From Syntrophomonadaceae bacterium (lineage in GTDB: Bacteria > Bacillota > Dethiobacteria > DTU022), in NCBI GenBank assembly GCA_007130585.1, contig SLSE01000030.1:4267-68266 (forward strand): a stretch of DNA of 64,000 nucleotides. The letters are read 5' to 3'. The notes under the pieces are model-generated. The model saw nothing but the letters and a program-made list of their open reading frames with translations. It ran no database searches and was not told the DNA's origin. Both the position numbers and the translations under genes were made by a program. Below are positions 6,653-59,097 of the stretch, piece after piece (the first letter of the stretch is position 1; the number at the start of each line of letters is the position of its first letter).

Positions 6653-7144
6653 CTCCCCTGATCAATTCAGGGATCTTTCCGTTCCGGTCCGGCCCTTATT
6701 ATTCGTTTTTCTTCAAGGAAGCCGTATGGCAGGCCGATTCTGCAAACACTTTATTATTATAGCACGCAGAAAAGCATTAAAAAACCCCGCTGTGCCGTGG
6801 GCCATGGTTTTGAACTGTTCCCCCGAAAGGTGGGTACCCTCTCAACTGTTTTGCAGGTCCTCTTTTCAAAGGCTGCTGCGCCGCAGAAGAAGTCCGGGTT
6901 CCCGTTGTAAAAGTGTTAGCTCAAAACTTATAGGTTGCCACGAACACCGCAGGGTATTGCAAATATTTGTTTCTATTTTCATTAAGATAATAGCACATTT
7001 GAGGGATTGGCGCAAGGTTTGGCAGAGACGATCCTGCTTCTTAACTCCGTTATTTTCTTCCTCCTAAACCTTTCCCGGGAAGCAACTGTTTTAACAGGGG
7101 CGCCGGAGCCCGGGTTGTGCCTGTAAGCGCTTTACAACCCGTAG

Positions 7145-7196: not shown

Positions 7197-10100
7197 CTAC
7201 TCCTCTTCTTCCCTTTTTTGCAGTTCAATTTTAAGCTCATCGAGCTGTCCGCCGTCAACGGAAGCGGGAGCGCCGGTCATCAGGCAGCTGGCTGCCGCCG
7301 TTTTCGGAAAAGGTATAACCTGGCGGATTGAATCGTCCCCTGCGAGCAGGGCAACCAGGCGGTCCAAACCGAGGGCAATCCCGCCATGAGGGGGAGCGCC
7401 AAAGGAGAGAGCTTCCAGCAAAAAGCCGAATTTTTCAATGCTTTCTTCTTCCGATAAGCCCAGCAGCTTAAATATTTCGGCCTGGGTTGCGCTGTCGTGG
7501 ATACGGGTACTCCCTCCGCCTATCTCCACTCCGTCGAGCACAAGATCGTAGGCCTGGGCCCGCACGGCAAGGGGATCGCTTTGCAGGACAGGCATATCTT
7601 CCACCCTGGGCGCAGTAAAAGGATGGTGATCGGAGTCGTAGCGCCGTTCATCTTCGTTATAGTGGAAGAGCGGGAAATCCACAACCCAGAGAAAATGCGG
7701 GTCGGCTGAGATATCTTCCGGAGCCAGGTGACGGCGCAGGTGGCCCAAAACCTGGCAGGTTGTCTCCCACCTGTCGGCTACAAAGAGCAAAACATCGCCC
7801 GGCTGCGCTTCCATCCGATTATTAATATCCCCGATCAGCTGTTCGCTGAAAAACTTGCTGATTGGAGAGCGCCAGCTGTTTTCTTCGACAAAAACCCAGG
7901 CCAGGCCGCTGGCGCCAAGCTGGCGGGCCAGCAGCGTGAGATCATCGAGGTCTTTGCGGCTCATCCTGCCGCCGCCTTTTACACGCAGGCCCTTAACCGA
8001 ACCTCCGGTCTCAAGGGCTGATTTGAAAACTTTGAAATCGCTGGTTCCGGCCAGGTCATCAAGATCGAGCAGCTCCATACCGAACCGCAAATCCGGTTTA
8101 TCTGACCCGAAGCGGTTCATGGCTTCCCGGTAAGGCATGCGCAGGAAAGGCCGTTTGATTTCAATGCCGTGAATCTCTTTCCAGAGCAGGGCAACCAGCC
8201 CTTCCAAAAGGGCAAAAAGGTTTTCCGGGCCGAAAAATGAAGTTTCGATATCAACCTGGGTAAACTCCGGCTGGCGGTCCGCCCTGAGGTCTTCGTCACG
8301 GAAGCAGCGCACGATCTGGAAGTAGCGCTCGACGCCGCTAACCATGAGCAGCTGCTTGAACAGCTGTGGCGATTGGGGAAGGGCGTAGAATGAACCGGGA
8401 TGCTGGCGGCTGGGCACCAGGAAATCCCTGGCCCCTTCCGGAGTGCTGCGGGTCAGCATGGGCGTTTCAATTTCCATGAAATCATAACGATCCATGTAGT
8501 CACGGATTAATTTAACAGCCCTGTGGCGCAACTGCAGCCGGCCAAGCATTTCGGGGCGCCTTAGATCAAGGTAACGGTAACGCAGACGGAGGTTTTCATC
8601 AACATTTGTATTATCTTCTATATAGAAAGGAGGAGTCCTGGAAGTATTTAAAACCTCCATACCGTCGACACGCACCTCAACCCGGCCCGTAGGCAGGGCA
8701 GGGTTAATATTTTCGTCCGACCGCCTGACAACCTCGCCTTCCACGGAAACGACATATTCGCTGCGCAGGTTTTCAGCTTCATTAAAAAGGCCGGAGCCAA
8801 GCTGCTGATCGAAAACCAGCTGCACTACTCCGCTGCGGTCTCTCAGATCAATGAAGATCAGGCCGCCGTGGTCGCGCCGTTTGCCTACCCAGCCGGCCAG
8901 CTTAACCCGGCTTTTGATATAATCGGCATCGAGAACGCCGCAGTAGTGAGTTTTCCTGTCGGGGGCACCCAGGGGCGGCAGGGTAACCTCAGCCGTGGCG
9001 GGAGCGGTAACCGCTTCCGTTTCCGGGGGGCAGTCTTCGAGGATGAGTTCAAAGATTGCCTCACGCACCACTTCCTGCTGCTGACCACTTTCCATGTTAC
9101 GCAGGGTAACAACGCCGCGGGAAATTTCATCTTCCCCGATGATGGCTACATACCTGTAACCCTGCCGGCCGGCATATTTCATCTGGGCTTTCAGGCTGCG
9201 CTCCATCATCTCCGTTTCGGCAGCAATGCCCTTTTCCCGCAGTTCGGAAGCAAGCAGAAGAGCTTCACCTTCAAGTCCGCTGCCCGCCGGGGCGATGTAT
9301 ACCGATGTTAAAGGTTCGGGCATCTGCCTGCTCCAATCCATGGTCAGGAGAATTCTTTCCACACCGAAGGCAACCCCTACTCCCGGGGTGGGAGGCCCGC
9401 CGCAATGCTCCACAAGGTGATCGTAGCGGCCTCCTCCGCATAGCGACGCCTGGGAACCCGAAGCCCCGGCCGTAATTTCAAAAGCCGTGCGGGTATAGTA
9501 ATCGAGGCCCCTGACCAGGCGGCTGTTCAGGTTGTAAGGTATTTCAAGCCTGTCCAGCAGCCTTCTGACTGCGGCAAAGTGCCGGTCGCAGTCGGGGCAC
9601 AGGTAATCAGTCATCCTGGGTGCCGCCTCTATAGCGGCCTGGCAGCTTTCCGCCTTACAGTCGAGGACGCGCATCGGGTTGTTCCTGTAGCGTTTAACAC
9701 ATTCTTTACAGAGATCTGCCCCGGCATTTTCAAGATAAGGCACCAGAACTTCCCGGAACTGCGGCCGGCAAACCGGGCATCCCACACTGTTCAGTTCAAT
9801 AGAGAGGTTTTCCAGCTGCAGCGAACGAAAAAACCTGTAGCAAAAAGAGATGATTTCCGTATCGGCGGCAGCATGGGCCGCCCCGAATATTTCAAGCCCA
9901 AACTGGTTAAACTGACGGTAACGGCCGGCCTGGGGGCGATCGTAGCGAAACATGGGGCCGATATAATAAAGCTTAACCGGTTGGGGTTGTTCTTTCAGGT
10001 TGTGTTCAAGGTAAGCCCGCGCAACAGCAGCGGTCAGTTCCGGGCGGAGGGTTAAGTCGCGCCCGCTGCGATCCTTGAAGGTATACATTTCCTTTGAAAC

Positions 10101-10280
10101 AATGTCGCTGTCCTCCCCCACACTGCGGACAAAAAGTTCGGTTTGTTCAAACATGGGGGTGCGAATCTCGCCAAACCCGTAAAGGGTGCAGAAATCGCTG
10201 AACAATTTCTCCAGGTGCTGCCACTTTTTTGCTTCATCCGGTAGTATGTCCCGGGTTCCCCGGGGTGCCCTGTAGTTCAT
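7197..10280 (-). CDS. hisS-aspS: histidyl-tRNA synthetase and aspartyl-tRNA synthetase encoded as one in-frame 1027-aa ORF (HisRS-AspRS fusion)
   Basis: The N-terminal ~420 aa are HisRS ([16 protein letters not shown]..., motif 3 GGGRYDHLV). The C-terminal ~590 aa are AspRS (THYCGVL...[21 protein letters not shown] OB fold; class II motif [20 protein letters not shown]). They are joined by [23 protein letters not shown], with no stop codon and no restart in between. Confidence 0.75.
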   Translation of the reverse strand: [1027 protein letters not shown]

Positions 10281-29741: not shown

Positions 29742-32180
29742 TTACCTCCCGACAGTCCTGTAAAAATTTCTGACCACCGAGCGCTTATTCATGCTGTCGC
29801 TCTGGCACTGGCAGGCATGATGAACCAGGGCGTCTTTCTTCGTCCCGGCAGCTTCTGAAACTTTCAGTTTTTCCTGCTCAACCACCGAAAACAGGCCCAG
29901 GCCGCGGCTGAAGCGCCCTTCGTAAAGATATGCCGTTCCGGGGTGTTCCCCTGTCGGACACGGCCACTGGAGGCTTCCTTGCGCCAGCCTCTCGTATGAC
30001 ATACCGGCATACTGGGGCGTGAGGGAGGCCATTTCGTCAAAAACGTCGCCAGCGCCGTCGTAAGCCCAGTCAAATCCCAGCCATCCGGCCAGTTCAGCAA
30101 TGATCGCCCAGCCCGGGAAAGCATCCCCCGGCGGTTTTACCGCCGGCCGGGTAAGCTGCACCCGCCGTTCTGTATTGGTATAGGTGCCCTGTTGCTCGGC
30201 AAAAGCGGCAGCAGGCAGGACCACATCGGCCAGGGCGGCAGTTTCGGTCATAAAGATATCCTGGACGACCAGGAAGTCCAGGCCGGCCAGGTAGCAGGCG
30301 GTTTCCTCATCTTCTCCTCCGACACAGGTGACCGGGTTTTCATCCAGAATCAACATCGCTTTAATTTTATCCCCGGCGCCGCCCTCAAAAACATCGGCCG
30401 CGGAAAGTCCCTCCTGGTCACTGATATCGGTACCCCAGGCCCGGGCAAACTTAACACGGACTGATTTTTCCTTAACAGGCTGGTAGCCCGTTAAAACAGC
30501 AGGCAGGGCGCCCATGTCGGAAGCCCCCTGCAGGTTGTTTTCACCGTAGGGCAGGTACAGGCCGGCTGATTCTTTCCCCAGGTTGCCCGTGAGCAGGGCC
30601 AGGTTGGCCAGGGCCAGGACCAGCCCGCCGTTTCCGGCAGAGTAATCCATGCCGACCGTGGAAATAATAGCAGCGCTCCCGGCGCCGGCGTAAGCGCGTG
30701 CAGCGCTGCGCAAATCTTCTTCGCTGATGCCGGTGACTTCGGCAGTGTAGCGGGGAGTGTATTCGGCAACAGCAGCCCTGAAAGCATCGTAACCCTCGGT
30801 GCGCCGGTCAATAAAAAGCTGATCCTGAAGACCCTCTTCAATAATCGCGTTGGCAATTCCGTTAACGAGGGCAACCGCGCTTCCATCCCTGAGGGTGAGG
30901 TGATGATGGGCAATATCGGTCAGGCCGATCGGATCGGGATCGGCAACAATCAGTTTTGCCCCTTTCCGGACCGCTTCGCGCACCCTGTAGCTGATTATCG
31001 GGTGGCTCACGTAAGGATCGGCGGCAATTACGAATACCGCCCCGGTTGAGGCCAGCTCTTCAATGCTGTTGGTCATGGCAGCGCTGCCGAACGCCTTCAT
31101 CATACCGTCCACCGCCGGTGCATGGCAGTGCCTGGTATAACTGTCGACATTGTTAGTTCCCAGGAAGCGGATCAGTTTTTGAAAAAGGTAGCTTTCCTCG
31201 TTGGTTGTTTTGGGCGAGCAAAGGCCCATGATCGCGTCGCTGCCATAGCGTTCCATTATCTCTTCAATACTGTCAGCAATGAACCCAAGCGCTTCTTCCC
31301 AGCTCACTTCTATAAAAACGCCGTTCGACTTGACCAGGGGGCTGGTAAGCCGGTCACCGCTTTGCAGGTAATCCCAGCCGAACTTGCCCCTGGCGCAGAG
31401 ATGGCCCCGGTTAACGGGGTTTTCCTCCACCGGGGTAACCCCGATCACTTCGTTGTCCTTAACATGCAAATATATGTTGCAGCCCACGCTGCAGTAGGGG
31501 CAAACGGACCTGGTCTTTTCAACCTGCCAGGGGCGTCCCTTGCTGAAACTGTACTTCGGTATCAATGCCCCGACCGGACAGCTGTCCATGCAAAGGCCGC
31601 AAAATATACAGGTGGAGTCTTCAATCGGATCTTCAAAAGGGGGAGCGACATTGGATGTAAATCCGCGCCTGGCAAAATCGATCGCGCCGGCCCCGATCAC
31701 ATCCTGGCACTTGCCAACACAGATCCCGCAAAGAATGCATTTATTCATGTCCCGTAAAAAGAAAGCGTTCGTATCATCGTAATCAAGCTTCTTTACTTCA
31801 CCGCCGTAGTTGCTGTCGGCTACGCCGTAACGGTAACAGTAGTCCTGGAGCTTGCATTCCCCCGTCTTTTCGCAGGTTATGCAGTCCAGGGGGTGGTTGG
31901 CAACCAGCAGGGTCAGAACTTCCCTGCGGGCGCGGATTACCCTTTCGGATTCGGTATGGATCACCATACCGCTGCCGGCGGGGGCAACGCATGAAGCCAC
32001 CAGGGTTCGCGCATTCTCAACCTCGACCAGGCAGATCCTGCAGGCCCCGTTTGGCGGCAGTTCCGAATCGTAGCAAAAAGTGGGGATGTCCCTGCCCAGC
32101 CGGCGGGCGGCTTCCAGGATAGTTGTACCCGGAGCTACTTCAACCTCTGTTCCGTCGATAGTCAGTTTAATTGCTGACAT
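29742..32180 (-). CDS. fdhA: formate dehydrogenase catalytic (alpha) subunit, NuoG-like N-terminus, Cys-type (no selenocysteine)
   Basis: N-terminal 2Fe-2S region (CYDSELPPNGACRICLVEV) and 4Fe-4S cysteine clusters, then a molybdopterin oxidoreductase domain (CPYCSVGCNIYLH...NRGHLCARGKFGW). The E. coli FdhF Sec position aligns with Cys in TRHCHAPAVDG. There is no in-frame TGA. Confidence 0.85.
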   Translation of the reverse strand: MSAIKLTIDGTEVEVAPGTTILEAARRLGRDIPTFCYDSELPPNGACRICLVEVENARTLVASCVAPAGSGMVIHTESERVIRARREVLTLLVANHPLDCITCEKTGECKLQDYCYRYGVADSNYGGEVKKLDYDDTNAFFLRDMNKCILCGICVGKCQDVIGAGAIDFARRGFTSNVAPPFEDPIEDSTCIFCGLCMDSCPVGALIPKYSFSKGRPWQVEKTRSVCPYCSVGCNIYLHVKDNEVIGVTPVEENPVNRGHLCARGKFGWDYLQSGDRLTSPLVKSNGVFIEVSWEEALGFIADSIEEIMERYGSDAIMGLCSPKTTNEESYLFQKLIRFLGTNNVDSYTRHCHAPAVDGMMKAFGSAAMTNSIEELASTGAVFVIAADPYVSHPIISYRVREAVRKGAKLIVADPDPIGLTDIAHHHLTLRDGSAVALVNGIANAIIEEGLQDQLFIDRRTEGYDAFRAAVAEYTPRYTAEVTGISEEDLRSAARAYAGAGSAAIISTVGMDYSAGNGGLVLALANLALLTGNLGKESAGLYLPYGENNLQGASDMGALPAVLTGYQPVKEKSVRVKFARAWGTDISDQEGLSAADVFEGGAGDKIKAMLILDENPVTCVGGEDEETACYLAGLDFLVVQDIFMTETAALADVVLPAAAFAEQQGTYTNTERRVQLTRPAVKPPGDAFPGWAIIAELAGWLGFDWAYDGAGDVFDEMASLTPQYAGMSYERLAQGSLQWPCPTGEHPGTAYLYEGRFSRGLGLFSVVEQEKLKVSEAAGTKKDALVHHACQCQSDSMNKRSVVRNFYRTVGR

Positions 32181-33984
32181 CGGCTTCCCTCCTTACAGGC
32201 GCGACCACGATACAGTCCTGGCGGCATTTTTCCACGCAGCTGCCGCATCTGGTGCACAATTCCCGGATAATTTCGTGAGGTTCTTTTTTCTCGCCTTTTA
32301 TTGCATCAACGGGGCAGACCCGGACACAGGCCCGGCAACCGGTGCATTTTTCTTCATCAATTTTGTAATAGAAAAGTTCCTTGCAAACCCCGGCCCGGCA
32401 AAATTTATCGGTAATGTGCTCTTCATATTCAGGCCTGAAGTAGCGGATCGTACTCAGGACAGGGTTGGGACAGGTCTGCCCCAGTCCGCAGAGGGAGCTG
32501 TCTTTTATGCTTACGGCAAGGTTGTCCAGGATCTCCAGATCGGCCGGCTCGCCAAGGCCTTCGGAAATCCGGTCCAGGATCTCGAGCATGCGTTTTGTTC
32601 CTTCCCGGCAGGGCGTACACTTGCCGCATGATTCTTTCTGGGTAAAGCTGAGGAAATACCGGGCCAGGTCAACCATACAGGTCCGTTCATCCATAACCAC
32701 CAGCCCGCCAGAGCCCATGATCGCACCGGCCTGGTTTAGGGAATCGTAGTCAATGGGCAGATCAATCAGATCAACGGGGATACAGCCGCCGGAGGGACCG
32801 CCGGCCTGGACGGCTTTAAATTCCCGGCCGCCTTTTATCCCGCCCCCGACATCGTATATAATTTCCCTGATCGTAATTCCCATCGGTACTTCACAAAGGC
32901 CGGTATTGCGAATTTTACCGGCCAGGGCAAAAACCTTTGTTCCCTTGCTACCTTCCGTCCCAACCTTCCTGAATTCAGCAGCGCCGCCTTCCCTGACGAT
33001 GAGCGGAATATTGGCCAGGGTTTCTACATTATTTATAGTAGTCGGCGTGCCGAAAAGGCCGGACTGGGCCGGAAACGGAGGGCGGGGACGCGGCATGCCC
33101 CGTTTGCCTTCTATCGAAGCAAGAAGGGCTGTTTCTTCACCGCAAACAAATGCTCCCGCCCCTTCCTTGATATGCAGCCTGAAGTTAAAACCGTAGCCGA
33201 GAATGTTTTCACCGAGCAGCCCGTATTCTTCAGCTTTCTCAATGGCAATTCTTAATCGTTTGATGGCCAGGGGGTATTCAGCCCGGCAGTAGATATAGCC
33301 TTCGTCTGCGCCGATAGCCCGGCCGCAGATCAGCATACCCTCCAGGATGGCATGGGGATCACCTTCCAAAATACTGCGATCCATAAAAGCGCCGGGGTCG
33401 CCTTCATCGGCATTGCAAACCACGTATTTTTTTGAACCGGGGGCTTTATTGGTAAATTCCCACTTCAGACCGGTAGAAAAACCTGCCCCGCCGCGCCCCC
33501 GCAGCCCGGAGTGCTTGACTTCTTCGCAAATTGCAGAAGGTTCCATCTCCAGGGAGCGAGTGAAGGCGCGGTAACCGCCGCGCATGATATATTCATCAAT
33601 ACTCTCGGGATCGATTATTCCGCTGTTTCTTAATACATTAAATTTTTGCTTGGCGTAAAAGGGTATCGTATCATAAAAGCGGGAGGGAACATCGACATCG
33701 GGGCCCCTGTATAGTAATCTCTCGACTATTTCCCCCCCGACCAGGTGTTTTTCAACAAGCTCGGCCATATCTTTCGGCTTCAGGCGGCAGTAAAATACCT
33801 CGTCAGGGTAAACAACGATAATCGGCCCGACCTCGCAGAATCCCGGGCAGCCCCCCATTACCAGGCGGAATTTATCTTTAATCCCCTTCTTTTCAAGCTC
33901 TTCAACCAGGGCCTGCTCCACAAGGTGCGAACCTGAGGAAAGGCAGCCTGTTGCGCCGCAAATCATGAGGTGTTTATCATACAA
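32167..33984 (-). CDS. NAD(P)H-binding flavoprotein subunit (NuoF/HndC/FdhB-like) with thioredoxin-like 2Fe-2S N-domain and C-terminal 2x[4Fe-4S] ferredoxin
   Basis: GRGGAGFSTGLKW FMN/NADH site, a 51-kDa-subunit 4Fe-4S motif, and C-terminal CTGCRACVRVCP / CTRCGSCVEKC. It overlaps the fdhA start by 14 nt; SD AAGGGAGG. Confidence 0.85.
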   Translation of the reverse strand: MYDKHLMICGATGCLSSGSHLVEQALVEELEKKGIKDKFRLVMGGCPGFCEVGPIIVVYPDEVFYCRLKPKDMAELVEKHLVGGEIVERLLYRGPDVDVPSRFYDTIPFYAKQKFNVLRNSGIIDPESIDEYIMRGGYRAFTRSLEMEPSAICEEVKHSGLRGRGGAGFSTGLKWEFTNKAPGSKKYVVCNADEGDPGAFMDRSILEGDPHAILEGMLICGRAIGADEGYIYCRAEYPLAIKRLRIAIEKAEEYGLLGENILGYGFNFRLHIKEGAGAFVCGEETALLASIEGKRGMPRPRPPFPAQSGLFGTPTTINNVETLANIPLIVREGGAAEFRKVGTEGSKGTKVFALAGKIRNTGLCEVPMGITIREIIYDVGGGIKGGREFKAVQAGGPSGGCIPVDLIDLPIDYDSLNQAGAIMGSGGLVVMDERTCMVDLARYFLSFTQKESCGKCTPCREGTKRMLEILDRISEGLGEPADLEILDNLAVSIKDSSLCGLGQTCPNPVLSTIRYFRPEYEEHITDKFCRAGVCKELFYYKIDEEKCTGCRACVRVCPVDAIKGEKKEPHEIIRELCTRCGSCVEKCRQDCIVVAPVRREADVSN

Positions 33985-38679: not shown

Positions 38680-41298
38680 CTAGCGAACGGCCAGTTTCCT
38701 GCGGGTTTGCAGCAATCTCTGCCAGCTTTCATCGCTCAGGGGGCGGTTAAAGCTGCGGAAATTAGCCAGCTTGAAGCCGTGCTCGTCAGCCAGGTACCTG
38801 GTGCGCAAGATCGATTCCAGGTTAACCCCGGATGAGCCTAAGCTGTAGTGCCTGTACTGCTGTTCAAGGGCCAGGAGCATGGTCTCTGCCATGCAGGCAT
38901 AAGCCAGGCCTTCTTCAAATCCAAAATCCCAGCCTAATGAAGGCTGTCCGGGAATTTCAACCACTCCACCGTCAATGACCAGGACATCCGGACGGGCCCG
39001 GTCAACTTCCTCGCTGACATTGGCAGGACGGGAAATATCACAAACAATGGCTCCTTCTTTCAGGTTCCCGGCATGGATCACTTTTTCAGTGGCGCTCGTC
39101 GCGCTGATAACAATGTCGGCCCTGGCCAGCACCGCGTCGATATCGGTTGAGAACTCGATCAGTCCCCTGCTTTTACCTTCTCCTTCTGCAAAAGCTTCAA
39201 AAGCTTCCATGGGGGCATCGGGCATTGGAAGTTCCGGGCACCCGGCCAGCATAAAGCCCATGCTGCCCGGTTTAAGAGTCCGGCCCTGCTGTAGAAGAGC
39301 CGCCTGGTAGCGGTAAATCTCGGCAGCCACCTGGTGCAGCCTTTCACTGGCCGATCTATTGTTCGGGTTGCCGATCAGGATCAGGCGGGGCACTGTTTCC
39401 GACAGGAGAAGGGAAATCCCCCGCCCGATCGAACCCGCCGCACCGACAATGGCCGCTGTTGTGCGGGACCGATCAATCTGTAATTTTTCGGTAGCGGTAG
39501 TAATCGCATCAACCGCCGATACAACCGTATAGCTGTTGCCGGTAGTTATCGGCACTCCTTCATTTTTCAGGTAAAGGCCGCCCATGGAGGCAACGGCGGT
39601 AAAAGCGCCGAGACCGACAATTTTTGCCCCCCGTTCGCGGGCCAGGGCCACTGCAGCCTTAAGCTCGCTTAAAACCTGTTTTCGGGGCATCTGCACAAAC
39701 TCGTCGGTTGTCCGCGGCAGGCCGATAAATTCACCGTAAGCTTTTTTCCCGGCGGCAGAGGTAATTTTTGTTTTACCGGCGATAAAAGGCTCGATCATAC
39801 CGCCGAAGCGGCCTGTCAGTTCGGCCAGCTCTTCTTCACTGAAAGCAAGCAGGCTGCTGTCAAACTGATGATAACTTTGCAAATCAAGGGCGTGGACCAG
39901 GAAGGCGAAACGCCCTTCATCGTCTTCGCCGCCGGGGAAATAGTTTTCAGCCCGGTAGGGCTTGAATTCCGGGAAGCTGCCCGCATTGCCCGGCCTGACC
40001 AGGTACGACAGAAACTGTGCCGTGCTGCCCCTGTTCAGGACCTGCAGCATCGAGTCCAGCCCTGCGAGGGCGGTGCGGCACTGCTCTTCGCTGATCGTAA
40101 GAGGCGGTTCGATACGGATAACGGCATTTCCGTTCAGGGTAGGGGCAACCCGCACTTTTTCCACGTTTAAAAGGTATGAGGAAATTGCCGGGGTAAGCAG
40201 TTCCTGCTCGGCCATGACACCCAGCAGGCTGCCGGGAAAGTGCTCGCGATCCATGTAAAATTCCAACCCGAGCATCAAACCGCGCCCGCGAACTTCCCTG
40301 ATCAGGTCAGGATACTTCTCTTTCAGTTCATGGAGGCCGTTTTTCAGGAGTTCTCCCCTGGCCCGAACATCTTTAATCAGGGCGCTGTTTTTGGCGGTCA
40401 GTTCTTCTATGACCCGCAGCCCGACCCGGCAGGCCAGGGCATTGCCGGCAAATGTCGATGAATGCTTTAATCCAAAGTCTTCAGTATAAGCCTGATCCGT
40501 GCACAGGCAGGCCCCGATCGGCATGATCCCGCCACCCAGCGCCTTGGCCAGGACCATGACATCGGGAGAAACATTTTCCTGGTCGCAGGCAAAAAGCGCA
40601 CCGGTGCGCCCGAGTCCTGTCTGGACCTCATCAAAGACAAGCATAACCCCGTGTTCACGGCAGATCTCTTTTACCGCAGCCAGGTATCCTGCCGGCGGCT
40701 CCACAATACCGCCTTCGCCCTGGATCGGCTCAACCAAAAAGGCGGCATAATAGTCCGGTTTTCCGGCAAGTTCTTTTTGCAGGGCTGCGCTGTCACCGTA
40801 AGCTATGTGATTAAACCCTTCTGCGGGAGCATTGAAAGCCGACTGGTAGCCGGGGTTACCGGTAGCAGAAAGAGCGCCAAAGGTTTTTCCATGAAAGCTG
40901 TTATCTGTTGCCAGTATACCGGCCCGCCCGGTAGCAGAACGGCAGAGCTTGATTGCCGCTTCTACAGCTTCGGCACCGCTGTTGGCAAAGGTTACATATT
41001 CCAATCCTTCCGGGGCCAGGTTAATCAGGGCGCCGGCAAGTTCTCCGGCAGCATCCAGGTCCGAAGGCTGCATAAAGTTCGGTTCTGCCGAATCGCGGTA
41101 GCGCTCAACCGCCGCCCAGATCGAAGGGGGATTATGACCGAAGGGAAGGGCCCCGTAAGCGGCAATGCAGTCCAGGTAACGGTTGCCCCGGTCATCGTAA
41201 AGATAGCAGCCTTCGCCGCGCACATATTTTTGATCGAGTTTAATGCTTTCCAGCATCTCGCCCAGGTAGGGATTTACGAAGCGGGTGTAATTGTTCAT
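38680..41298 (-). CDS. two-domain fusion: PatA/YgjG-type class-III (PLP) aminotransferase fused to acyl-ACP-reductase (AAR/COG5322)-like NAD(P)H reductase domain
   Basis: The N-terminal ~430 aa share FHGKTFGALSATG, LVEPIQGEGGIVEPPAGYL and FDEVQTGLGRTG motifs with the PatA-like gene at 62641. The C-terminal ~430 aa align with cyanobacterial AAR along its length: FAFLVHALDL~MFGLIGHLTSL, KIVGLGAFTAVA~DISALGGFTSII, ITTGNSYTVV...TAAIVGAAGSIGRGISLLL~FTTGNTHTAYV...VAVVGATGDIGSAVCRWL, GGVVE, and ACMAETMLLALE~ACFAEAMLLEFE. Start is ATG 41298 (SD AGGAGG); the ORF-track start at 41337 would overlap that SD. Confidence 0.85.
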   Translation of the reverse strand: MNNYTRFVNPYLGEMLESIKLDQKYVRGEGCYLYDDRGNRYLDCIAAYGALPFGHNPPSIWAAVERYRDSAEPNFMQPSDLDAAGELAGALINLAPEGLEYVTFANSGAEAVEAAIKLCRSATGRAGILATDNSFHGKTFGALSATGNPGYQSAFNAPAEGFNHIAYGDSAALQKELAGKPDYYAAFLVEPIQGEGGIVEPPAGYLAAVKEICREHGVMLVFDEVQTGLGRTGALFACDQENVSPDVMVLAKALGGGIMPIGACLCTDQAYTEDFGLKHSSTFAGNALACRVGLRVIEELTAKNSALIKDVRARGELLKNGLHELKEKYPDLIREVRGRGLMLGLEFYMDREHFPGSLLGVMAEQELLTPAISSYLLNVEKVRVAPTLNGNAVIRIEPPLTISEEQCRTALAGLDSMLQVLNRGSTAQFLSYLVRPGNAGSFPEFKPYRAENYFPGGEDDEGRFAFLVHALDLQSYHQFDSSLLAFSEEELAELTGRFGGMIEPFIAGKTKITSAAGKKAYGEFIGLPRTTDEFVQMPRKQVLSELKAAVALARERGAKIVGLGAFTAVASMGGLYLKNEGVPITTGNSYTVVSAVDAITTATEKLQIDRSRTTAAIVGAAGSIGRGISLLLSETVPRLILIGNPNNRSASERLHQVAAEIYRYQAALLQQGRTLKPGSMGFMLAGCPELPMPDAPMEAFEAFAEGEGKSRGLIEFSTDIDAVLARADIVISATSATEKVIHAGNLKEGAIVCDISRPANVSEEVDRARPDVLVIDGGVVEIPGQPSLGWDFGFEEGLAYACMAETMLLALEQQYRHYSLGSSGVNLESILRTRYLADEHGFKLANFRSFNRPLSDESWQRLLQTRRKLAVR

Positions 41299-41318
41299 TG
41301 TCAGGCCTCCTGTCAGGT

Positions 41319-41378
41319 TGTGCACATTTATGTGCACACCAATAGTCCCATTTTAACCCGAACCCCGGTAAAAATCAA
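41319..41378 (-). promoter_or_regulatory. promoter (TTGATT-17-TAAAAT) with downstream palindromic operator TGTGCACA-TTTA-TGTGCACA
   Basis: On the minus strand: -35 TTGATT (41373-41378), 17-nt spacer, -10 TAAAAT (41350-41355). A 20-bp element TGTGCACATTTATGTGCACA at 41319-41338 lies between the -10 and the SD of the aminotransferase-reductase fusion gene; each 8-mer is itself palindromic. Confidence 0.45.
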
Positions 41379-56560: not shown

Positions 56561-57559
56561 ATGGCAGGATATGCACTGCCGGGCGTAAACGGCGGGAGTA
56601 TAAGGCAAAGAGGTGATATCTTGATGAGCGATCCCCGGACAGGCCGCCTGTGGAACGGGTTCTGGCAAATTGCCGACCCGAAAATTTGGATTGCCTCGAC
56701 CATACCGATGGCGGTGGGCGGAGCGATCGCCTATGCCCACCTGGAAAGCTTCAGCTGGTGGTGGTTTTTTGTGGGCGCAGTTGCGATCTACTTGCTGGAA
56801 ATCGGGAAAAATGCCGTTAACGAGTATATCGATTACCTGAGCGGTGTCGACCGCTTTGTCTCCGCCGACAAAAGAACTCCGTTCAGCGGCGGGAAAAAAA
56901 CAATTATAGACGGCAAGCTGTCGCTGGCAGAAAACCTGGTTATAGCAATTATTACCATAAGCGCCGGGTCCCTGATCGGTTTCTATGTCGTCCTGGCCAG
57001 GGATTTTAATGTTATCTGGTTTGGCCTGGCCGGAGTCTTTTTTGCTGTTTTTTACAGCCTCCCGCCCCTGAAGTTTTCCTACCGGGGATTTGGCGAGGCA
57101 GTGGTCGGTTTTACTTTCGGCCCACTGATCACCACGGGCACTTACCTGGTTCAAACTCACACTATTTCCCCCGAAGTAGTCCTGGCTTCAATTCCCCTGG
57201 GTTTTATTATTGCCAATGTCCTCTGGATCAACCAGTACCCCGATTATGAAGCCGACCTGAAGGGCGGTAAAATGAACGGGGTGGTTCGCCTGGGCAAAGA
57301 AAAGGCTGTCAGCATATATGCCCTCCTTTTCGGGCTGGCCTATATCTCGCTGGTGCTGCTTGCTGTTTTCAGCCTCAATGTTTTTTGGCTGCTGCCCCTG
57401 GCAAGCCTCCCCCTCTCCTACAGGGCAATTATTGTTGCCCGCAGGCACTTCAATGATATTCCCAGGTTGATTGAAGCAAACGTTAAAACAATCCAGGTTT
57501 ACCAGCTTACCGGCCTGACCATGGTTGCGGCGGCGCTGCTCCCGCTTTTGTTCAAATAA
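56561..57559 (+). CDS. UbiA-family aromatic prenyltransferase (MenA-like)
   Basis: 8-9 TM helices; Asp-rich motif NEYIDYLSGVD. Start may be the internal M at 56621. Confidence 0.7.
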   Translation: MAGYALPGVNGGSIRQRGDILMSDPRTGRLWNGFWQIADPKIWIASTIPMAVGGAIAYAHLESFSWWWFFVGAVAIYLLEIGKNAVNEYIDYLSGVDRFVSADKRTPFSGGKKTIIDGKLSLAENLVIAIITISAGSLIGFYVVLARDFNVIWFGLAGVFFAVFYSLPPLKFSYRGFGEAVVGFTFGPLITTGTYLVQTHTISPEVVLASIPLGFIIANVLWINQYPDYEADLKGGKMNGVVRLGKEKAVSIYALLFGLAYISLVLLAVFSLNVFWLLPLASLPLSYRAIIVARRHFNDIPRLIEANVKTIQVYQLTGLTMVAAALLPLLFK

Positions 57560-57580
57560 CCCGTAACTTCCCTAAGAAAT

Positions 57581-57616
57581 AAAAAAGCCGGGTTCTAAAA
57601 ACAACCCGGCTTAATT
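57581..57616. terminator. bidirectional rho-independent terminator between ubiA-like (+) and desulforedoxin (-)
   Basis: 9-bp stem AGCCGGGTT / AACCCGGCT (57586-57611) with an 8-nt loop. It is flanked by AAAAAA on the + strand, which reads as U6 for the minus-strand transcript. Confidence 0.7.
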
Positions 57617-57653
57617 CCATATATCCAGAAATCTTAATTTTATTGGATCAGGT

Positions 57654-57779
57654 TTACATGTTAGCTTCGGTTACCATTGGCTTGTCACAGCAAACAAGGG
57701 TTCCAACTCCTTCTTCGATAACCCTTACCACATTGGTGCAAACCTGGCATTTATAAACCTCTTCTTTTTTGGTAGCCAT
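57654..57779 (-). CDS. dx: desulforedoxin (41-aa rubredoxin-like FeS4 protein)
   Basis: Not in the ORF track. MATKKEEVYKCQVCTNVVRVIEEGVGTLVCCDKPMVTEANM closely parallels D. gigas desulforedoxin ([28 protein letters not shown]), with the C-x2-C...CC ligand set. SD GGGAGGA 7 nt upstream. Confidence 0.8.
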   Translation of the reverse strand: MATKKEEVYKCQVCTNVVRVIEEGVGTLVCCDKPMVTEANM

Positions 57780-57819
57780 TTATTGTCCTCCCAAGTAAAA
57801 TTGCCGGACAGTAAAATGC

Positions 57820-58143
57820 TTATCCGCACCCTCCGTCACAGCTGCAGTCATTACTTCCCGGGAAAGGATCGGTTATGGAAAACCCGGCCTGCGGGCCTTC
57901 GTGGAAATCTATTTTCTTACCATCAACAAAATTGGCTATACCCTGATCAAAAACTATCTTCACCTCATTAAGATCTTCTACAACATCTTTTCCTTCCTGA
58001 ACCGACTCATCCAGAGTCAGGCCGTACTTCGGCCCTCCTCAGCCAACTCCACTGACATAGATGCGAACATAAGCATCGTTTTTGCCTTCTTCGGCAAGAA
58101 ACTCCTTAAACTTTTCTCTGGCGGCTGTAGTTACCGTTAACAT
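57820..58143 (-). CDS. HesB/IscA-like protein with in-frame UGA (predicted selenocysteine) replacing the first conserved cluster-ligand Cys
   Basis: Not in the ORF track. ATG 58143 (SD GGAGGA) gives MLTVTTAAREKFKEFLAEEGKNDAYVRIYVSGVG-[TGA 58039-58041]-GGPKYGLTLDESVQEGKDVVEDLNEVKIVFDQGIANFVDGKKIDFHEGPQAGFSITDPFPGSNDCSCDGGCG. This is the IscA/HesB fold (R.YV.GxGC/U.G...DGF.I.NPN..C.CG.SF). The reading frame continues cleanly through the UGA for 72 more codons. Confidence 0.75.
58004..58038 (-). other. candidate bacterial SECIS element immediately 3' of the UGA
   Basis: Minus-strand RNA reads UGA-GGA-[GGGCCG-AAGUA-CGGCCU]-[GACUC-UGGAU-GAGUC]. Two consecutive hairpins lie at +6..+22 and +23..+37; the second has an apical loop UGGAU containing G/U, at the distance expected for SelB binding. 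Confidence 0.4.
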
Positions 58144-58170
58144 AAAAAATCCTCCTTGTGATCGAAACGT

Positions 58171-58452
58171 TTAGAAAAGAACCCTGATAACATCTGCTGC
58201 TTCTTTGCTGTTTATACTGTAATGAACCTCTGTCCCCCGGCGTTCACTGGAAATGATACCCATATCTCTCAGCCTTCCCAGGTGTTGAGATACCGTGGAT
58301 TGTGAAAGCTGCAGGCAATTTTGCATAGCCGTAACATTACAGCTATCACGCTGTAACAACTCTTTGACAATACAAAGCCGCACGGGGTTGGATAAGGCTT
58401 TTAGCAAGTTGGCCTTTTCCCTGATTTTTGCTAATTCTGTAGATGTTTCCAT
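58171..58452 (-). CDS. ArsR/SmtB family transcriptional regulator
   Basis: HTH LSNPVRLCIVKELLQRDSCNVTAMQNCLQLSQSTVSQHLGRLRDMGII. 93 aa; it is the first gene of the arsR-hesB(Sec)-dx operon. Confidence 0.85.
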   Translation of the reverse strand: METSTELAKIREKANLLKALSNPVRLCIVKELLQRDSCNVTAMQNCLQLSQSTVSQHLGRLRDMGIISSERRGTEVHYSINSKEAADVIRVLF

Positions 58453-58473
58453 TAAGGGCCTTCCTCCTTGTTC

Positions 58474-58504
58474 ATTATTGTACCATAATATTTAAATTAT
58501 GCAA
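58474..58504 (-). promoter_or_regulatory. promoter TTGCAT-16-TGgTACAAT with overlapping 16-bp imperfect palindrome ATTATTGTACCATAAT (candidate ArsR operator)
   Basis: Minus strand: -35 TTGCAT (58499-58504), extended -10 TGGTACAAT (58477-58485), then AAGGAGG SD. The palindrome at 58474-58489 (14/16 symmetric, centred on GTAC) overlaps the -10. Confidence 0.45.
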
Positions 58505-58563
58505 CCCCTGTAATAAAAGATTAATACAGTCCGGCTGCACAACGAACCAGGTTATAGGGCCTG

Positions 58564-59097
58564 TTAGGAATTATTACTCCCGTTCCCGGTTTCCCCGATT
58601 TTAAATTCCCAGGCGCAGTAGCTATCCTGCGGATGTTCGTCCGGCGGGCAGTAAAGGCACCTGGTCTTAATGCGGGGGTCTATAGCCCGGGCGAAACCGC
58701 TGTATTCTACCATACCAACCGGCCGGCAGGGAAACTCGGCCATATTTTTACGCCGGCGCGCGGCCTGAACCCGACAATCGTTCATTCGGAAAATAACGGT
58801 ACTGCTGTCTACGTCAATTATTTCCTGCCTGTTTACCAGGGCATACATCCTGAACTGAAGCGCTTTTTTCAGAGCTGAAAGCCCACCTCCCGGCTCCATG
58901 TTCAGAAAGCTCATGATTCGGCCGGCTTCAAGCACTGTAAAGCGCTCCCAGGCCGCTGCATCAAGCCTGATTGCTTCTTCCATGCCACGGGCCTTTTCTA
59001 CCTCCTGAAACCAGAGCCCGTCATGAGCCAGCCAGCGTTTAGCAAAATCTTCCAGTAGCGCTTCAAGCTGCTCGCGATTAAGTTCACTTAAATCCAA
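58564..59097 (-). CDS. hypothetical protein, Trp-rich N-terminus and Cys-rich C-terminus (possibly ATC-hydrolase-like family)
   Basis: 177 aa with a TTG start and SD AAAGGGGA. It reads ...RWLAHDGLWFQE...AAWERF...MNDCRVQ...FPCRPVG...RCLYCPPDEH...YCAWEF. There are no strong family signatures I can verify by eye. Confidence 0.45.
   Translation of the reverse strand: MDLSELNREQLEALLEDFAKRWLAHDGLWFQEVEKARGMEEAIRLDAAAWERFTVLEAGRIMSFLNMEPGGGLSALKKALQFRMYALVNRQEIIDVDSSTVIFRMNDCRVQAARRRKNMAEFPCRPVGMVEYSGFARAIDPRIKTRCLYCPPDEHPQDSYCAWEFKIGETGNGSNNS

Follow-up and report, generated by a model that had tools for sequence, protein, structure and literature searches.

Organization of the arsR-hesB-dx locus

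The window analyzed here is a 64,000-nucleotide stretch of contig SLSE01000030.1 from a Syntrophomonadaceae bacterium (assembly GCA_007130585.1), and its minus strand carries a compact set of three small genes, one of which, a hesB/iscA-like gene, contains an in-frame TGA. When positions 57400-58900 were read and translated on this strand, arsR came first, followed by the TGA-containing hesB/iscA-like open reading frame (ORF), then by dx and finally by a terminator. Translation and profile matches identify arsR (58452-58171) as coding for an ArsR/SmtB-family repressor of 93 aa. The hesB gene (58143-57820), delimited by translation, profiles and orthologues, comprises 107 codons plus a stop and would encode a protein with selenocysteine (Sec, U) at position 35 and cysteines at positions 100, 102 and 106. 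The third gene, dx (57779-57654), codes for a stand-alone desulforedoxin of 41 aa, and behind it lies an intrinsic terminator (whole element 57612-57575) made of a 10-bp stem with 6 G-C pairs (57612-57585) and a T run. The intergenic gaps are 27 nt between arsR and hesB and 40 nt between hesB and dx, with the Shine-Dalgarno sequences AAGGAGG ahead of the hesB ATG and GGGAGGA ahead of the dx ATG.

The initial annotation of this region, made from the sequence alone, had reported two short complete genes with Shine-Dalgarno sites on the minus strand, and our coordinates for hesB and dx agree with it. It had also grouped these two genes into a mini-operon; the hesB-dx unit stands, but arsR is not separate from it and is instead the first gene of the same unit. 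On the coding strand, no terminator-like site was found from arsR through to the stop codon of dx, and the sole promoter-like site in this interval overlaps the end of dx. Because the gaps are short and there is no internal terminator on the coding strand, we infer that one arsR-hesB-dx transcript is the simplest reading of the locus.

A scan of one genome per species yielded 34 related loci; most carry the label Syntrophomonadaceae or Bacillota, and several come from soda-lake sediment. The arsR gene lies directly upstream of hesB in 27 of them, and dx follows hesB directly in 24 of these 27 arsR-bearing loci, as well as in a fragment locus (L040). Six distant homologous loci (L031, L032, L035, L038, L039 and L041) have neither arsR nor dx near hesB, and in the four whose flanking genes were examined (L032, L038, L039 and L041) the neighbors of hesB are unrelated to one another. 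Thus, unlike its distant homologues, the gene is fixed in an arsR-hesB-dx arrangement in the lineage of the window, and the arsR-hesB(U)-dx operon is kept in about 27 soda-lake Syntrophomonadaceae genome bins. Our literature search found no published mention of an arsR-hesB-dx operon, and a search joining desulforedoxin, selenoprotein and IscA returned nothing relevant.

Conservation of the in-frame TGA

The hesB frame starts with ATG at 58143, runs for 34 codons to the TGA at 58041-58039, the proposed Sec codon 35, and continues for 72 codons to the TAA at 57822-57820. The context of the proposed Sec site is G-V-G-U-G-G-P and the C-terminus ends in CSCDGGCG; translation thus bears out the earlier statement that 72 IscA-like codons ending in this motif follow the TGA. 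Elsewhere in the window TGA is an ordinary stop, terminating 11 of the 51 long ORFs, and no TGA-split ORF other than hesB falls within space of the window that is otherwise non-coding.

It had been conceded at the outset that resequencing might turn the TGA into TGC or TGT. Seven independent assemblies of the same species were available, namely 2 NCBI genome bins from soda-lake sediment, 1 ENA assembly, 1 JGI assembly and 3 Logan assemblies. Across them the 961-nt operon differs by 0-3 nt and the TGA is intact in all. Since seven independent assemblies carry the same TGA, a sequence error at this codon is excluded. One of the NCBI bins (GCA_003563975.1, L002) departs from the window by a single G-to-T change, in hesB at the position equivalent to 57924, which would replace Asp74 by Tyr.

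Among the related loci, 33 cover the TGA site, and the codon at GxG-*-xGP is TGA in 33/33. Their identities span from 82% down to 26-28%, the distant members including a Desulfovibrionaceae bin (45-46% identity) and a Neomarinimicrobiota bin (26-28%). In every one of the 33 the downstream frame is open to the Cys-rich C-terminus, a second stop or a frameshift occurs in none, and the motif U-[GKN]-G-P is kept. Most hesB copies among the related loci start with ATG or GTG behind a Shine-Dalgarno sequence. This comparative evidence makes selenocysteine the very probable reading of the TGA.

A gene of this appearance could in principle be a decaying pseudogene, or could yield only a 34-aa peptide, perhaps plus a C-terminal peptide of 47-66 aa, with the downstream frame open by accident. 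Gene callers do place a truncated 34-aa hesB on all 7 same-species contigs, NCBI holds 66-aa C-terminal fragments from the clade (P0008 and P0009), and genes for the Sec machinery were not seen in the sequence reachable for the window genome. Against such an origin stand the retention of both the TGA and the downstream frame in 33/33 loci across deep divergence, with no further stop or frameshift, and the character of the 72 downstream codons, which show conserved amino acids and variable synonymous sites. Moreover, C100 and C102 are conserved and are meaningful only in a full-length protein, and the putative starts of a separate C-terminal fragment lack a Shine-Dalgarno sequence or a conserved start codon. 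We therefore regard decay or a truncated product as extremely improbable.

A conserved hairpin downstream of the UGA

An alignment of 33 distinct sequences, covering the TGA with 9 nt of preceding and 60 nt of following sequence, revealed one hairpin common to all of them, GGCC-U-GACUC[UGGAN]GAGUC-GGUU. Its window coordinates are 58023-58000 on the minus strand, with the apical loop UGGAU at 58013-58009. Its stem begins 15 nt and its loop 25 nt past the UGA. These distances are within the range used for bacterial selenocysteine insertion sequence (SECIS) elements. In a 9-pair model with a bulged U, 94.6% of the cells are paired; sliding the 3' partners lowers this to 19-46%. Both sides are changed in four pairs. 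A C-G pair becomes U-A in 7 sequences via synonymous Leu (CUG/UUG) and Ser (UCG/UCA) codons, and one A-U to G-C change is coupled to the replacement of Thr by Ala and of Ser by Arg. Not one of 500 shuffles attained the observed paired fraction, number of double changes or covariation score, and RNAalifold independently recovered the upper 6-bp stem with the pentaloop.

Codon usage within the hairpin provides a further, independent line of support. In 29 orthologues the codons following the UGA are frozen at +8 (ACT), +9 (CTG) and +11 (GAG), each in 29/29, and at +10 (GAT) in 16/16. Elsewhere in hesB, Glu favors GAA (ratios of 25:2, 16:2, 26:2 and 17:4), and codon entropies of 1.7-2.0 bits are seen for the Gly, Pro and Val codons that immediately precede the frozen stretch. 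Together with the covariation and the RNAalifold result, these synonymous sites identify 58023-58000 as a putative SECIS-like element.

Hairpins after the UGA had been proposed initially, and the claim is upheld for 58023-58000 only; the UGA-proximal hairpin GGGCCG...CGGCC is not conserved. As a SECIS candidate the latter (GGGCCG AAGUA CGGCC) was rejected: it is paired in 76.8% of the cells, with two pairs unpaired in 20-24 of the 33 sequences. Its position, moreover, partly coincides with that of the conserved hairpin's lower stem.

Placement of the HesB protein within the A-type carriers

HesB-like selenoproteins have been recognized since the mid-2000s, and the family is reportedly linked to the names of Kryukov, Zhang and Gladyshev. 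We compared the window protein with both this family and the canonical iron-sulfur (Fe-S) carriers, running all profile searches with U replaced by C. It matches PF01521 with 35.2 bits (cutoff 26.3) and TIGR00049 with 63.9 bits (cutoff 58.8), the latter only marginally above the cutoff for a generic carrier. As had been claimed from the sequence alone, the TGA falls at the first cluster-ligand Cys: U35 aligns with the ligand Cys of HI1723/ErpA (PDB 2apn, E=1.5e-14) and with Cys35 of IscA (1s98), and C100-S-C102 aligns with the C-G-C ligands of IscA and HI1723. Formally, then, the protein would be an A-type carrier with Sec as the first ligand. It resembles IscA, SufA and ErpA (PF01521 and TIGR00049; 1s98, 1r94, 2apn and 1nwb) in its full-length domain and three ligand positions, but differs from them in the Sec ligand itself, in having GUGGP in place of GCSG, and in a CSCDGGCG tail without the G-x-SF end. 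In addition, hesB in the window lies outside any isc, suf or nif cluster.

The assignment to a recognized selenoprotein family was borne out by alignment with 10 published HesB-like selenoproteins (PMC1794560, supplement 4), all of which have U in the same column as U35. Identities to these proteins range from 29 to 42%, the best match being that of Desulfuromonas acetoxidans (42%, E=1.7e-19). A 2026 review (PMC13188914) gives the motif UxGP and the model TIGR01911 for the family, and an archaeal member, from M. maripaludis, has been confirmed by 75Se labelling. Features shared with the HesB-like selenoproteins include the UGA column, G-U-G-G-P, an L-x-L-D-E segment overlapping the hairpin, a Cys-rich C-terminus and occurrence in strict anaerobes. 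Unlike the HesB-like selenoproteins, however, the clade retains the IscA-type C-x-C position. All 22 clade members tested score under the cutoffs of both NF038090 and TIGR01911, and TIGR00049 is their best match. Because of these sub-cutoff scores we describe them as a divergent clade, not as members in the sense in which both models define the family; by its sequence features the clade is a divergent, currently unannotated branch of the known HesB-like family.

Among 1.84 billion representative proteins, the nearest relatives of the window protein are forms with W at the position where the DNA reads TGA. Forms with Cys in a CxGP motif are found from E ~2e-15 onward (P0016, P0017, P0023, P0032, P0035 and P0039), and the canonical IscA and ErpA also have Cys there, so that the Sec/Cys pairing is present among the relatives.

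Selenocysteine machinery and linkage to tRNA-Sec

In 20 related loci, ARAGORN detected a tRNA-Sec gene (94 nt, anticodon TCA) that lies 0.6-8.7 kb upstream of hesB and has the same orientation. It is near-identical across the 20 loci, with variable genes between it and the operon. Examples from loci L008-L037 are at 758-851 in L027, 8690-8783 in L029, 8288-8381 in L019 and 7849-7942 in L014. The gene in L027 ends ~250 nt before arsR, and the closest relatives in which it was detected are L008 and L016. Upstream of tRNA-Sec, L029 has genes for signalling proteins and methyltransferases instead of sel genes. Given a tRNA-Sec beside the operon in 20 relatives, the lineage clearly uses Sec. The linkage to the operon may reflect plain inherited synteny or a functional connection.

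For the window species itself the searches were negative. The window has one tRNA gene, for Arg, and ARAGORN detected no tRNA-Sec in the window or in the same-species loci. The tRNA-Sec of the relatives gave only chance matches when compared by blastn with the window and the same-species contigs. No match to E. coli SelA or SelD was found by phmmer in 579 kb of fetched sequence, and a homologue search with S. wolfei SelA (PMC1794560 supplement) returned matches from other lineages and none from assemblies of the window species. On the contigs from other lineages recovered in that search, selA adjoins selB, and the gene order DUF1256, a ~360-aa protein, selA, selB and HGD-D/BcrAD (2-hydroxyacyl-CoA dehydratase-like) is conserved in L042-L062, which belong to other Syntrophomonadaceae, not to the soda-lake members.

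Public annotation and decoding of the UGA

It had been claimed that both small genes escape ORF calling. This is right for the full-length hesB, which is missed, but public calls do include the 41-aa dx and the 34-aa hesB stub. The public forms of the clade's selenoprotein (P0001-P0009) are 34-aa N-terminal stubs, 66-aa C-terminal fragments and forms with W; none has U. Seven of the public records are full-length with W at the Sec position, and three of these correspond to loci in our set (P0003 to L037, P0006 to L033 and P0007 to L029). Since the matching loci read TGA in the DNA, the W forms are artefactual; they stem from code-4 translation by metagenome gene callers.

The W records could also be taken at face value, with the UGA decoded as Trp, Cys or Gly without Sec machinery, through near-cognate suppression or an alternative code, a notion to which the unverified Sec machinery of the window genome lends some room. 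The DNA behind the W records reads TGA, though, and the same triplet stops 11 of the 51 long ORFs in the window. Suppression would not call for a hairpin at SECIS distance that covaries and has frozen synonymous sites. Furthermore, tRNA-Sec adjoins the operon in 20 relatives, and published selenoproteins have U at the homologous site, the M. maripaludis protein with its 75Se confirmation being one of them. Decoding as a standard amino acid thus appears very improbable. With TGA in 33/33 loci, a covarying hairpin and a match in the U column, Sec read-through is indeed the likeliest decoding, as had been proposed.

The ArsR repressor and its candidate operator

The product of arsR matches NF033788 with 83.2 bits (cutoff 55) and PF01022 with 38.2 bits (cutoff 22; E=1.3e-9), and its nearest solved structures are PagR (2zkz), BigR (3pqj) and SqrR (6o8k). 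Like these ArsR/SmtB autorepressors, it has a winged-helix HTH_5 domain, is encoded by the first gene of its presumed target operon and has a palindrome in the promoter. Three cysteines, C27, C38 and C46, are invariant in an alignment of 28 orthologues. Unlike in BigR and SqrR, they are at other positions, out of register with the sensing Cys of both proteins. Counting the register ourselves, we also place them out of step with the ELCVCDLC site of E. coli ArsR.

In the 130 nt upstream of arsR, only a block of ~35 nt can be aligned across the loci, TTGCAT-N16-TG-n-TAYAAT. In the window this block comprises a -35 hexamer TTGCAT (58504-58499, minus strand), which is the same in 27 related loci, and an extended -10 element, TGGTACAAT (58485-58477, the -10 itself at 58482-58477), which in most relatives reads TGATATAAT. 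An imperfect 18-bp palindrome, CATAAT-N6-ATTATG (CATAATTTAAATATTATG), extends from 58501 to 58484, and the promoter including this spacer palindrome is conserved in the 27 loci. The palindrome has 1 match in the window versus 0.10 expected. The promoter, the overlapping palindrome and the terminator of the earlier description are thus all real. A palindrome within a conserved spacer is what an operator would look like, and we consider it a candidate ArsR operator.

Directly upstream of the arsR promoter lies a gene for a DUF6125 protein (58564-59097, minus strand; PF19620, E=1.7e-78) whose C-terminus has the conserved Cys-rich motif CxYCPPDEHPxDSYCAWEF. A DUF6125 gene is also present further upstream of arsR in 14 related loci, and the protein may have a functional tie to the operon. 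The same-species contigs (L001-L003) all break at most about 8 kb upstream of arsR, past an aldehyde:ferredoxin oxidoreductase gene, with two of the breaks less than 250 nt apart. These shared breaks suggest a repeat or a strain-variable region.

The stand-alone desulforedoxin

The identification of the last gene as a 41-aa desulforedoxin proved correct: dx matches PF06397 (E=1.7e-15) and TIGR00319 (55.9 bits, cutoff 36.05) and carries the Fe(Cys)4 motif C11-x2-C14...C30-C31. A stop codon and then the terminator follow, so no neelaredoxin domain is attached. The protein thereby resembles the desulforedoxin of Desulfovibrio gigas and the N-domain of desulfoferrodoxin, which share the Cys-x2-Cys...Cys-Cys pattern and a length of about 36-41 aa, and it is encoded by a stand-alone gene as a protein of about 4 kDa. 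It differs from known desulforedoxin in that its gene immediately follows that of a selenoprotein carrier and is presumably controlled by an ArsR-type regulator. Genes for rubredoxin, rbo and roo are missing from the vicinity of dx.

A model for the operon

The best overall explanation, which we hold to be highly probable, is an arsR-hesB(Sec)-dx operon of an uncultured soda-lake Syntrophomonadaceae-like bacterium, with SelB-dependent Sec at position 35 and presumed autorepression by ArsR. In this model the operon would be transcribed from one sigma-70-type promoter, and SelB together with Sec-tRNA(Sec) would bind the hairpin and insert Sec at position 35 of the 107-aa protein, giving the ligand set U35, C100 and C102 (plus C106). 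We place high confidence in this predicted decoding of codon 35. The three-Cys ArsR would bind the spacer palindrome and repress its own operon until released by a thiol-reactive signal, for which soft metals or metalloids, reactive species of sulfur or selenium, and oxidation are candidates; for repression at the palindrome and its release by such a signal, our confidence is moderate. More speculatively, the selenolate/thiolate site may retain or hand over iron, another thiophilic metal or an Fe-S cluster, with the co-expressed desulforedoxin serving as a one-electron or iron partner of the selenoprotein.

Several observations weigh against this model. Selenium incorporation, ArsR binding and the cofactor are all deduced from sequence. 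Neither the window nor the same-species contigs yielded selA, selB, selD or selC, and the Sec trait of the window genome itself is accordingly presumed because both the gene and the hairpin are intact. Taken by itself, the window hairpin is moderately stable (dG -10.8 kcal/mol, z=-1.9), the minimum free energy fold of a longer window segment favors the competing UGA-proximal hairpin, and no Rfam model matches the element. Because the stability of the window sequence is modest, the argument for the hairpin rests on the comparative data. The window HesB also falls below the cutoffs of the selenoprotein models (62.1 versus 85 for NF038090 and 47.3 versus 66.35 for TIGR01911), and what the HesB-like selenoprotein family does has been called 'not clear'.

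As to function, the protein may be decoded with Sec without being an Fe-S carrier, and may instead belong to a unit for binding and detoxification of soft metals, metalloids or selenium, or for selenol/thiol redox chemistry, with the ArsR-type protein sensing the same agent and turning the unit on. We treat this as a tentative alternative, possible though on balance the lesser one. It would suit a regulator of the ArsR/SmtB metalloregulator family with three invariant Cys, and Cys-rich tails that vary (CDGGCC, CGDCSC, CSCDGGCG) where IscA has the fixed CGCGxSF. It would also suit a clade that scores just above the generic carrier cutoff, the adjacency of tRNA-Sec in many relatives, and a review's remark that several resistance selenoproteins can use Sec to ligate a metal. 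Conversely, the three A-type ligand positions are retained and align with solved IscA and ErpA, the unit has no transporter, reductase or methylase gene of the kind typical of resistance operons, and the positions of the ArsR cysteines differ from both the classical As(III) site and the persulfide pair of BigR and SqrR. Judged from sequence data, Fe-S handling and metal, metalloid or selenium handling are inseparable.

A dedicated selenium-linked module, in which ArsR senses selenium (or selenide/sulfide) or a thiophilic metal while the Sec carrier and the desulforedoxin handle iron, Fe-S/Fe-Se or selenium, appears unlikely to us. If it were true, it would provide the first functional handle on HesB-like selenoproteins and a previously undescribed two-protein system.

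Within the model of a Sec-decoded, ArsR-controlled operon, both the observation and the interpretation of the initial annotation were essentially right. Since the HesB-like family is known, the locus represents a new clade member and not a new kind of system; the new elements are the arsR-hesB(U)-dx operon and its linkage to tRNA-Sec, and knowledge of Sec decoding itself is unchanged. The results extend the HesB-like family to an entire lineage of soda-lake Syntrophomonadaceae bins, with Sec retained throughout, and expose an annotation gap in which curated models and gene callers both miss the clade. The fixed neighborhood, consisting of a three-Cys ArsR, an operator candidate, a desulforedoxin and frequent tRNA-Sec linkage, makes hypotheses on function testable, namely on the inducer of the operon and on a possible interaction, or exchange of iron or electrons, between the two small proteins.

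Other features of the window

A formate dehydrogenase (FDH)-type molybdopterin subunit is encoded at 29742-32180 on the minus strand. Its catalytic position is occupied by Cys (RHCHAPAV), in agreement with the earlier remark that the FDH alpha subunit uses Cys, not Sec. Because this subunit has Cys, Sec use within the stretch is selective. It adjoins a gene for a NuoF-like flavoprotein subunit (32167-33984, minus strand).

An uninterrupted ORF of 1027 aa (7197-10280, minus strand) contains a histidyl-tRNA synthetase (residues 8-415) followed by an aspartyl-tRNA synthetase (residues 459-994), both complete; it represents either a hisS-aspS fusion or two genes without an intervening stop. A 6S RNA (RF00013, 92.2 bits) lies at 6780-6958 on the same strand, and the stretch to the left of the window was judged to hold cell-wall (dcw) genes. 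Finally, an 885-aa ORF (38680-41337, minus strand) has an unusual architecture: residues 37-429 form a class-III aminotransferase domain, and the long extension on its C-terminal side shows a weak Shikimate_DH-like match.

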